Shown here: piece after piece, positions 27,001-30,000 of the stretch
How the letters are laid out: the number at the start of each line of letters is the position of its first letter
How positions within the stretch are numbered: the first letter of the stretch is position 1
Origin: a virus
Taxonomy: Duplodnaviria > Heunggongvirae > Uroviricota > Caudoviricetes
IMG/VR virus record: IMGVR_UViG_2721755725_000014
DNA: 39,038 bases
Reading direction: 5' to 3' (one strand)
Program-made: the position numbers

Positions 27001-30000
27001 GGGTAAATCGTGGCTGAGTTAATTTTCTCTGCATTGAGGATTCTCGGTGCTATGTGGATGGTGGCGACGTTCATTGTTGTTGCCAGCAGTTTTGTCCGGT
27101 TGGTAGGCGAAGGTAAAGACCTGGTGGGTGTGCTTTTCGGTAGCATTTTCCTGTGGGTGATTATCGGTGTTATGCCTGTCGCTGTAGCAAAAATGGCGTG
27201 GAGTTTTGTGAGTTGAACTGAGGGTAAGTATCGATGGACGAATCAAGAAAGCAGTTTGAAGAAAGTTGGTTGCGACGTGGAGGCGAATCCTCAGACCTTA
27301 TCCGTTACCCTGAAAATCACCATGAAATTGGCAGTGGTGATATTGGTGGTCAATACGTGATGGACGATGTTCAAGGCCACTGGCAAACGTGGCAGGCATC
27401 GCGAGCAGCTATTGAACTGGATATTGACTGGCCCGAATCGAATGACGACTTTTGGAAAGATGGTGAAGAAGGTGCTTATGCGATGGGTTATGAGGATGGG
27501 AGAGACAAAACGGTAATTGCAGTAATGAAAGCTATCAGAGCCGCTGGAATTAAAGAGAAGAATTTCGATGAAGCAAACAATCTTCCTCCGAACTAAGCAA
27601 CAACAGCAAGCTGCAATAAATGCCATCCTCGCAACACCACTCGATAAAGACAAGCCAGTCACCATCCGCATTACTGACTACAAGCGCAACCTTGACCAGA
27701 ACGCAAAATTTCACGCGATGCTGGCGGATATCGCTCGTCAGGTTCAATGGTGCGGCAAATGGTTAAAACCAGAACAATGGAAGGTTTTGTTGATCAGCGG
27801 TCATGCAGTGGCAACAAAACAGGAAGCTGATGTTTTTCCCGGGCTTGAAGGCGAATACGTCAACATTCGCGAAAGCAGCGCGCAGATGAGTGTGAAGCGT
27901 ATGGCAAGTCTTATCGAGTACACAACAGCCTGGGCTATTGGTCATGGTGTCAGATTTACCGACAGGAGGTACGAATGAGACGACAGCGACGAAGTATCAC
28001 CGACATCATCTGCGAAAACTGCAAATACCTTCCAACGAAACGCTCCAGAAATAAACGCAAGCCAATCCCAAAAGAATCTGACGTAAAAACCTTCAACTAC
28101 ACGGCTCACCTGTGGGATATCCGGTGGCTAAGACATCGTGCGAGGAAATGACAATGGATTATTCACAGTTAAGTGATTTTGAAATTAACGTGGCGGTATT
28201 CGAAGCCATTCATAACGGATCGCCGGATTACAAAGAAGGTGAGAATGGCGATATGGTGTTTGTCTCATTTGAGGGAGACATTGTAAACGGAGACGCAGTT
28301 GAAGTAGAAGTTGAGCGCGGATCCTTTAACCCATGCGCAAACCCAGCAGACTCATGGCCGATTATTGAAAAATACAGGATTAGCATTATCAATCTCGATG
28401 AAGACGAGTGGGGTGCACGCGGTGTGGCCTACTGTAAATCTAAGCGAGCTATACATGAAAATCCCCTTCGCGCCGCCATGATTGTCTTTCTCATGATGCA
28501 GAGAATCCAATAATGCTTAGCCCATCCCAATCCCTTCAATACCAGAAAGAAAGCGTCGAGCGAGCTTTAACGTGCGCTAACTGCGGTCAGAAGCTGCATG
28601 TGCTGGAAGTTCACGTGTGTGAGCACTGCTGTGCAGAACTGATGAGCGATCCGAATAGCTCAATGTACGAGGAAGAAGACGATGAGTGATTACCTGAAAT
28701 GGTATCTCTGCCACCGCTGGCTAATTAAGTTTGCTGTAAAAGACTGGATGACAGCGGATGCCAACAAACTTAAGCAAAGAAAGGACTATTACTACGCCAG
28801 AATGAAGGAAAACTACTGCTCAATTCGCACTCGCATATTTATTAAAAAAGACCTTCAGTCAATTCTTCAATTGCGAGGGAAGGTAAATGGCTAACCTACG
28901 CAAAGAAGCGCGCGGCAGAGAATGCCAGGTACGTATTTACGGCGTATGCAATGGCAATCCTGAAACTACAGTTCTGGCACATTACCGGATGGCTGGAATT
29001 TGTGGAACGGGGATGAAGCCTGACGACCTGATCGGCGCATGGGCTTGTAGTGACTGCCACGCGGAGATCGACCGACGCACAAGGATTCTCGACAACAAAG
29101 ACGCCAGACTTTACCACCTCGAAGGCGTGATCAGGACGCAGGCGATACTGCTGAAGGAGGGGAAGATTAAGTCATGAACGAATATCAGTTTGTGCTTCCA
29201 TACCCGCCGTCGGTGAATACCTACTGGCGAAGACGGGGAAGCCAATACTACATCAGCGATAAAGGCCAGAAATACCGAAAAGACGTTCAGCAAATCATCC
29301 ACCAACTCAAGTTAGATATTTTCACCAAATCACGACTCCGCATCAAAGTAATCGCAGACGTTCCAGACTCCCGCCGCCGCGACCTAGATAACATCCTGAA
29401 GGGTTTACTCGACTCCCTTATCCATGCCGGATTTGCGGAAGACGACGAGCAATTCGATGACATTCGCATAATTCGTGGTGTGAAAGTACCAGGCGGACGG
29501 CTTGGAATAAAAATCACCGAACTGGAGAACGCATGAACGCCACAATTCAAACGATACCAGAGCTTCTTATCCAGACACGAGGCAATCAGACCGAAGTGGC
29601 GAGGATGCTTTCCTGCGCAAGAGGAACAGTGCTCAAGTACAACCGAGACAGCAAAGGCGAGCGTCATGTAATAGTTAACGGCGTCCTGATGGTCAAACAG
29701 GGCAAGAGGGGAAGACGATGAGACTCGAAAGCGTAGCTAAATTTCATTCGCCAAAAAGCCCGATGATGAGCGACTCACTACTGGCCACAGTTTATTGGTT
29801 TTCGTAACTGAGTCATTTTATTATTTTATTGCAACTTTTAATCTTTTATAGTGCGAAATAAATGGAGCTGGCATTCATTTCGCACTTTATGTTTTTGTTG
29901 GACTTATGTTATTTTGATTGAATTCAATTCAGTTAAAAAAAGAAGGTGATTGCTCCATTTATAAATGAATAGTCATCCCCTGTCTTGAATTCTGATGTTA

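Follow-up and report, generated by a model that had tools for sequence, protein, structure and literature searches.

A truncated lambda-type Q gene upstream of an intact Q82-family antiterminator gene in a lambdoid prophage of Escherichia coli

This analysis concerns a 29-codon open reading frame (ORF) in a 39,038-nucleotide stretch of Caudoviricetes DNA (IMG/VR record IMGVR_UViG_2721755725_000014; the whole stretch is referred to below as the window), together with an intact antiterminator gene whose start lies 1.6 kb downstream of it. The ORF, which we call the stub, is preceded by genes encoding YbcO and RusA (PF05866) and then by ninH, whose TGA overlaps the ATG of the stub (ATGA). Its translation is MRLESVAKFHSPKSPMMSDSLLATVYWFS, and phage 434 (GenBank OL657226) has the identical 90-bp ORF. 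Like the lambda antiterminator Q (PF03589; PDB 7UBM, 4MO1), the stub sits directly after the nin genes, and its residues 1-20 are identical to those of lambda Q at 20 of 20 positions (compared with the PDB 7UBM sequence). In a five-way DNA alignment, all 61 nucleotides from 29718 to 29778 (nt 1-61 of the gene) are the same in the window, phage 434, E. coli O157:H7 EDL933, E. coli EA7 and lambda, and BLAST matches to the lambda-type Q region reach 29785-29788 with E-values of 1e-24 to 1e-34, far beyond chance. Beyond a short junction zone (J1; Table 1) similarity to lambda Q is gone; the tail of the stub, LLATVYWFS, is read from foreign DNA, and the GC content per 200 nt falls from 0.50 (29600-29799) to 0.29 (29800-29999). 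An earlier note on this DNA, made from the sequence alone, had described the 29-codon ORF directly after a small gene close to rusA (the gene identified here as ninH), its divergence after about 20 codons (identity to lambda Q ends at 29778 and similarity after 29795) and the sharp drop in GC at 29800, and all of this is borne out. The parent it named, a Qin-type Q, is not: the Qin protein YdfT of strain K-12 belongs to the same family, PF03589, but starts with MNLEALPKYYSPKSPKLSDD, and the stub matches lambda Q itself.

What an intact gene looks like at this position can be seen in E. coli EA7, which has upstream sequence in common with the window and encodes a 207-aa protein (start MRLESVAKFHSPKSPMMSDSPRATASD) that is almost identical to lambda Q along its full length (PDB 7UBM, E 1.8e-138). 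The stub differs from lambda Q in lacking 187 of the 207 residues. BLAST with lambda nt 43886-45185 and tblastn with lambda Q found no piece of the rest of lambda Q, of the Q-binding element (QBE) and pR', of the 6S region or of tR' anywhere in the 39-kb window, and only the first 71 nt of the lambda segment have a match. Since the stub piece alone matched in both searches, we conclude that the window lacks the Q body together with the lambda QBE/pR', 6S region and tR'. A Pfam search of the stub gave no match. An Rfam scan of 29000-36500 likewise returned nothing at the stub; its one notable match, a sub-threshold STnc100, lies farther downstream and is described below.

The structure of lambda Q indicates what these losses would entail. 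Residues 61-113 and 153-207 make up the helix-turn-helix (HTH) body, through which the protein binds the QBE; a zinc ribbon (residues 114-152) contacts the zinc-binding domain (ZBD) of RNA polymerase (RNAP) and sigma R4, and residues 1-44 fold into a torus only in the NusA-containing loading complex, in which the body of the protein sits on the QBE and RNAP (PMC9388147). The stub has the N-terminal homology expected of a PF03589 protein, but it has neither the HTH body nor the zinc-ribbon arm and keeps only a small part of the torus; a cognate pR', QBE, pause site and tR' are missing as well. With only residues 1-20 retained, the stub cannot antiterminate.

Downstream, the window encodes a full-length member of a different Q family. 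The 229-aa product of the gene starting at ATG 31369 matches PF06323 with 306.8 bits (cut-off 25) over profile positions 1-216 of 220 and is thus a full-length member of the family of phage 82 Q; where Q proteins are divided into three families, PF06323 corresponds to Q82 (PMC9388147). The gene also has the position of a Q82 gene, between the nin region and the lysis genes, with ylcG or rusA in front. The earlier note had raised a 257-aa ORF as a possible substitute for the lost Q. By its profile match this ORF is an antiterminator of the Q82 family. The 257-aa version, read from GTG 31285, overlaps ylcG and is an over-extension, because the homologues of the window Q are all 690 bp long and start with MNT... 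at the equivalent of ATG 31369. A PDB sequence search with the 257-aa ORF was empty, and the Q82 family has no solved structure. The window Q is identical to the Q of phage 434 (100% aa identity), where it is the sole Q of a viable phage, and by this indirect analogy the 229-aa protein would mediate Q-dependent readthrough of terminators.

Directly downstream of the Q gene, the sequence has the layout of a Q82-type late control region, with a candidate late promoter (pR'), a candidate sigma-dependent pause element and an intrinsic terminator (candidate tR'). The -35 element of the candidate promoter overlaps the Q stop codon, and transcription is predicted to start near 32077; given this start, the -10-like hexamer of the pause element spans +9 to +14 and carries a TG extension. 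In phage 82, pR' leads into a pause element of the extended -10-like kind, with the discriminator GCC at +15-17 and a pause at +25/26 (PMC5001585), and the window likewise has such an element behind its candidate promoter, at about +9 to +14. In an alignment of six Q82-type loci with Q identities of 59-87%, the -35 region TTGCAAAA is invariant, the -10 element reads TATAYT and the motif TGnTATnnT is kept, with no gaps between them. The terminator in the window stands about 20 nt earlier than in the Q82-type relatives. Without Q, a transcript running from the candidate pR' to tR' would be about 55 nt long.

Table 1. Features between the nin region and the lysis genes of the window (positions in the window; strand left empty where none applies).
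Feature	Position	Strand	Basis and remarks
ninH, last nin-region gene, 62 aa	29533-29721	+	PF06322, E 2e-24; RefSeq 'protein ninH'
Q stub, 29 codons	29718-29807	+	lambda-type Q codons 1-20 plus 9-codon tail stopping within foreign DNA
Junction J1 zone, crossover point somewhere inside	29779-29795		11 of 17 bases match lambda Q, no similarity beyond (alignment)
Block (a), lpxR cassette	29779/29796-31217		similarity limits against lambda Q and Q82-type phages
Hairpin I1, near-perfect, 15-18 bp, between converging stub and lpxR	29847-29889		inverted repeat; folds on the minus strand at -25.4 kcal/mol (z -4.6), equalled by none of 200 shuffles
lpxR, lipid A 3'-O-deacylase, accessory 'moron' gene	29933-30892	-	PF09982, E 6.8e-40; RefSeq and phage 434 annotation
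AT-rich region upstream of lpxR, right part of lpxR cassette, 325 nt	30893-31217		GC 0.27
Block (b), ylcG-Q module, Q82 family	31218-32091		homology to Q82-type phages
ylcG-like small gene, usual upstream partner of Q82-type Q	31232-31354	+	RefSeq, phage 434 annotation, relatives
Q, Q82-family antiterminator, 229 aa, intact	31369-32058	+	PF06323, E ~1e-91
Candidate late promoter pR': -35 TTGCAA 32042-32047, 17-nt spacer, -10 TATACT 32065-32070	32042-32070	+	consensus and conservation
Candidate sigma-dependent pause element, extended -10-like, TGGTATGTT, ~+6 to +14	32082-32090	+	conservation; phage 82 pR' layout
Intrinsic terminator, candidate tR', 9-bp stem and T8	32104-32133	+	fold; annotated terminator in phage 434
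Predicted membrane protein, 247 aa, first gene after pR'/tR'	32243-32986	+	RefSeq, phage 434 annotation; no Pfam match
DUF3927 small membrane protein, 'TciB' in phage 434 record	33072-33230	+	PF13064, E 3.4e-14
SASA-family sialate O-acetylesterase, NanS-p-like	33529-35379	+	profile match; present in phage 434, absent from EDL933 copy
Class II holin and lysozyme RrrD	35827-36530	+	RefSeq, phage 434 annotation

The same arrangement occurs in phage 434, which was propagated lytically for genome sequencing (Feiss et al. 2022, PMC9119081). Window positions 29707-36300 are 99.6% identical to this phage, in which the region CPT_434_64 to CPT_434_67 likewise comprises the stub, lpxR, the ylcG-like gene and the Q82-like Q, with the membrane protein, DUF3927/TciB, esterase, pinholin and signal-anchor-release (SAR) endolysin genes also shared. 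In the phage 434 record, CPT_434_64 is labelled 'antiterminator-like protein' and 'lambda antiterminator protein Q P03047, N-terminal fragment', and the genes after it are given as LpxR, YlcG-like and a 'Q82-like' transcriptional activator/antiterminator. This description is found in the database annotation and is absent from the text of the genome announcement (PMC9119081); a literature search for phage 434 together with lpxR found nothing. The two differ upstream, where phage 434 has ninI (phosphatase) as in lambda and the window has ninH after rusA, and in their state, with phage 434 being viable and plaque-forming, whereas the window prophage is rearranged and defective. The lpxR prophage of EDL933 and related prophages of enterohaemorrhagic and enteropathogenic E. 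coli (EHEC and EPEC) also carry the stub, lpxR, ylcG and Q, at 99.4% identity; in EDL933 the gene in front of the stub is ninI. From 27001 to 37000, the 10 kb that were compared, the window and E. coli E2863 (NZ_AP018802.1) share 100% identity, and for 29718-29789 RefSeq gives the label 'antitermination protein; incomplete; missing C-terminus' there, as it does in EDL933. The stub is an ordinary scar and a known one, with an entry both in RefSeq and in the phage 434 record. Just after its stop codon, an 8-bp tandem duplication (ATTTTATT, 29815-29830) is extra relative to phage 434 and common to EDL933.

The DNA to the right of the stub is a mosaic of at least three blocks, namely (a) the lpxR cassette, (b) the ylcG-Q module and (c), to the right of 32091, the terminator and the accessory genes of the late operon, with the class II holin and lysozyme genes after them. 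The earlier note had the body of Q replaced by foreign DNA, which agrees with the truncation and with the unrelated AT-rich sequence from about 29779-29796, and took the replacement to be one 3.4-kb block (29808-33230), which it is not. Homology to Q82-type phages starts at 31218 (junction J2, where homology to PhiR47_2 begins) and stops at 32091; as judged from these limits, the lpxR cassette is therefore a block separate from the ylcG-Q module. Nucleotide identity of block (b) is 87% to PhiR47_2 from 31218 and 64-76% to four other Q82-type phages from 31367, and the AT-rich region at 30893-31217 has no similarity to Q82-type phages. The earlier note had suggested aligning intact Q regions to define both ends of the replacement. 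This fixes the left end at J1, 29779-29795, but no right end is definable against lambda or the intact-Q prophage of EA7: lambda has no similarity to the window after 29788, and similarity to EA7 resumes only within the holin gene (35876-36020), at 86%.

Within the cassette, LpxR matches PF09982 at full length (137.4 bits, profile positions 2-320 of 323). One relative was found among one-genome-per-species GTDB contigs, in Citrobacter sp. ANG330, with 73% aa identity and a match limited to the coding region. PMC6393859, citing Ogawa 2018, describes lpxR in EHEC as Ler/Pch-regulated. No insertion sequence (IS) ends or target duplications were seen around the cassette, and the repeats that flank it are short and at about chance level, such as GATGATGAGCGA at 29762 and GATGATGAGTGA at 31193 (11 of 12 positions), where by our own estimate 1.85 kb would contain a few such pairs by chance alone. 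The hairpin between the stub and lpxR is followed on the plus strand by a U-rich run, UUUAUGUUUUUGUU, and its sequence suggests that it may act as a terminator of lpxR, of unmodified rightward (early) transcription, or of both. If it terminates both, expression of Q would need N-modified polymerase that reads about 1.4 kb antisense through lpxR.

The junction is common in E. coli. Queried with 283 nt spanning it and counted at a coverage of at least 80%, it was found in 620 of 5,426 complete genomes, and the lpxR cassette was found in 622 of the same genomes, two of these being distant plasmid copies. Essentially every chromosomal lpxR cassette therefore carries the same scar, which fits a single origin. 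The exact junction 40-mer is present in 50 IMG/VR contigs (27 behind ninI, 22 behind ninH and one cut by the contig end), and it had no match in the one-genome-per-species GTDB contigs, a result that speaks for species representatives only. Among the junction-bearing complete genomes, 189 of 620 have the ninH context. Both nin contexts are also found with an intact lambda-type Q, and they differ right up to the ATG; because of this, at least one crossover probably took place inside the 61-bp stub, which would then have served as a homology arm between nin backgrounds. None of the 49 readable IMG/VR copies, one of which has A7V, shows an interruption of the stub ORF, and of the 43 junction-bearing contigs that extend over the Q82-type gene, 39 have it intact. 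Among IMG/VR loci L012-L061, two junction contigs carry a Q82-type allele about 90% identical to the window Q (208-209 of 230 positions) and two have internal stops in Q. These divergent and interrupted alleles suggest further recombination and decay in the module.

Taken together, we think it very probable that the stub is a non-functional scar of a lambda-type Q gene, and that late control in this architecture is provided by the Q82-family Q at its own promoter. We envisage one ancestral illegitimate join within Q codons 21-26, by which the nin region of a phage with lambda-type Q would have been fused to foreign DNA. The incoming DNA would have brought the lpxR cassette on the reverse strand, followed by ylcG, the Q82-family Q, a pR' with a sigma-dependent pause element, and tR'. 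Late-gene antitermination would then come from the Q82-family protein acting at its own promoter, with the stub uninvolved, and the holin and lysozyme genes would be late genes within reach of the Q-modified polymerase. The stub is probably still translated into a 29-aa peptide, because its start codon is kept and overlaps the upstream stop codon. Later, its 61 bp of identity to lambda Q would have been used at least once as the left homology arm, carrying the lpxR-Q82 cassette from one nin region to another.

The earlier note had read the same locus differently, with late-gene antitermination abolished by loss of the Q body unless the 257-aa ORF substitutes for it; on such a reading the stub would mark a functionally decapitated late-control switch. 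The lambda-type Q is indeed cut after about 20 codons, the lambda pR' and tR' are absent, and the prophage in the window is also without many other essential genes. An intact Q82-family gene nevertheless follows downstream with a conserved promoter, pause-like element and terminator, and the whole region from the stub to the lysis genes is present in plaque-forming phage 434, whose viability contradicts the loss of late antitermination; we regard this explanation as highly unlikely. Could the short ORF be an unrelated or chance ORF, or the junction an artefact of assembly? It is very short, and ORFs of 25-40 codons often arise by chance. The alignments nonetheless refute an unrelated ORF, an outcome for which the earlier note had allowed: the 61 identical nucleotides are the 5' end of lambda Q (E down to 1e-34) and lie exactly where Q stands behind ninH or ninI, and the same junction recurs in a phage that was sequenced independently and in 620 complete genomes. 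There is next to no chance that this account is correct.

The 29-aa product might instead be a functional micro-protein, for example if its torus helix (residues 1-11) were to bind the RNAP ZBD at the RNA-exit channel and hinder a rival lambda-type Q, or if it had acquired a new role. Its start codon and the overlap with the upstream stop are kept, the ORF is open in every readable IMG/VR contig, and in the loaded complex residues 1-11 of lambda Q touch the RNAP ZBD (PMC9388147). With the whole module about 99-100% identical in all copies, however, the open frame says nothing about selection; the torus of lambda Q folds only when NusA is present and the body is held on the QBE and RNAP; and the peptide has no Pfam match and ends in a tail that merely derives from foreign DNA. 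We consider a functional micro-protein extremely unlikely. A broader speculation, that the stub is not inert and either disturbs a rival lambda-type Q through the RNAP exit channel or is kept as a portable homology arm with which the cassette could invade any phage with lambda-type Q, seems to us highly improbable as well.

Several observations weigh against late control by the Q82-family Q from its own promoter and an inert stub. Promoter-like sequences are no more frequent in the region than in shuffled sequence (9, against 10.7 expected from shuffles), so the case for pR' rests on conservation across phages, and promoter, pause element and terminator alike were called from consensus and conservation. 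In the window the pause-like element has GTA as its discriminator, as opposed to GCC in phage 82 and other relatives (five of the six Q82-type loci), and a Q-binding element is not among the elements identified at the locus. The case for this locus was built on sequence. With regard to the stub, its copies are all nearly identical, and selection on it is therefore not measurable either way. Finally, the prophage of the window has no annotated N, cI, cro, O, P, terminase or Rz gene; because it lacks these genes and is rearranged, Q may never be expressed there, whatever its type. The window copy cannot run a normal lytic programme irrespective of the state of Q, and phage 434 is the viable reference for this architecture.

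Beyond correct annotation the significance of the stub is small. It is a textbook case of lambdoid mosaicism, in which a 61-bp remnant would date one illegitimate join and would later have become a homology arm for module exchange. A truncated regulator does not equate to lost regulation where the incoming DNA carries an analogous regulator from a different family. When prophage intactness or Q type is scored in EHEC and EPEC genomes, the Q82-family gene should be counted at this locus and the stub disregarded.

Within block (c), a sub-threshold match to the Rfam family STnc100 at 33241-33445 on the plus strand (E 1.7e-6; 41.4 bits, where the gathering score is 47) marks a candidate small RNA (sRNA), and a strong terminator at 33416-33443 closes the match. 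The EPEC sRNAs PasD1 and PasD2 are related to STnc100; over 98% of hits have them within 10 kb of LpxR and Q, and a sialate esterase lies between pasD2 and the holin (2026 bioRxiv 10.64898/2026.05.13.724894). That layout is the layout of the window, except that the neighbouring Q is labelled PF03589 there and the intact Q here belongs to PF06323. The esterase segment 33554-35307 is an insertion/deletion polymorphism within the late operon, being present in the window and phage 434 and absent from the EDL933 copy. Over the start of the esterase gene, RefSeq places a minus-strand pseudogene (33311-33552; hypothetical, frameshifted and truncated), where phage 434 has a 62-aa membrane protein on the plus strand.

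The prophage in the window has been altered elsewhere as well, at 1-27000 and 36544-39038. Its head and tail genes and its nin-Q-lysis block stand in inverted orientation to each other, the portal gene is interrupted by an IS3-family element, two copies of IS1203 are present, and the integrase gene directly follows the lysozyme gene rrrD. The element has ybhC as a neighbour, which is the region of the lambda attachment site. Beyond the tail-fibre genes, at about 1-6000 (NZ_AP018802.1 884892-891205), lie the type III effector genes nleH, cif and espJ together with a frameshifted DUF1076 gene, and the element is an effector-carrying lambdoid prophage of an EPEC/EHEC-type strain.

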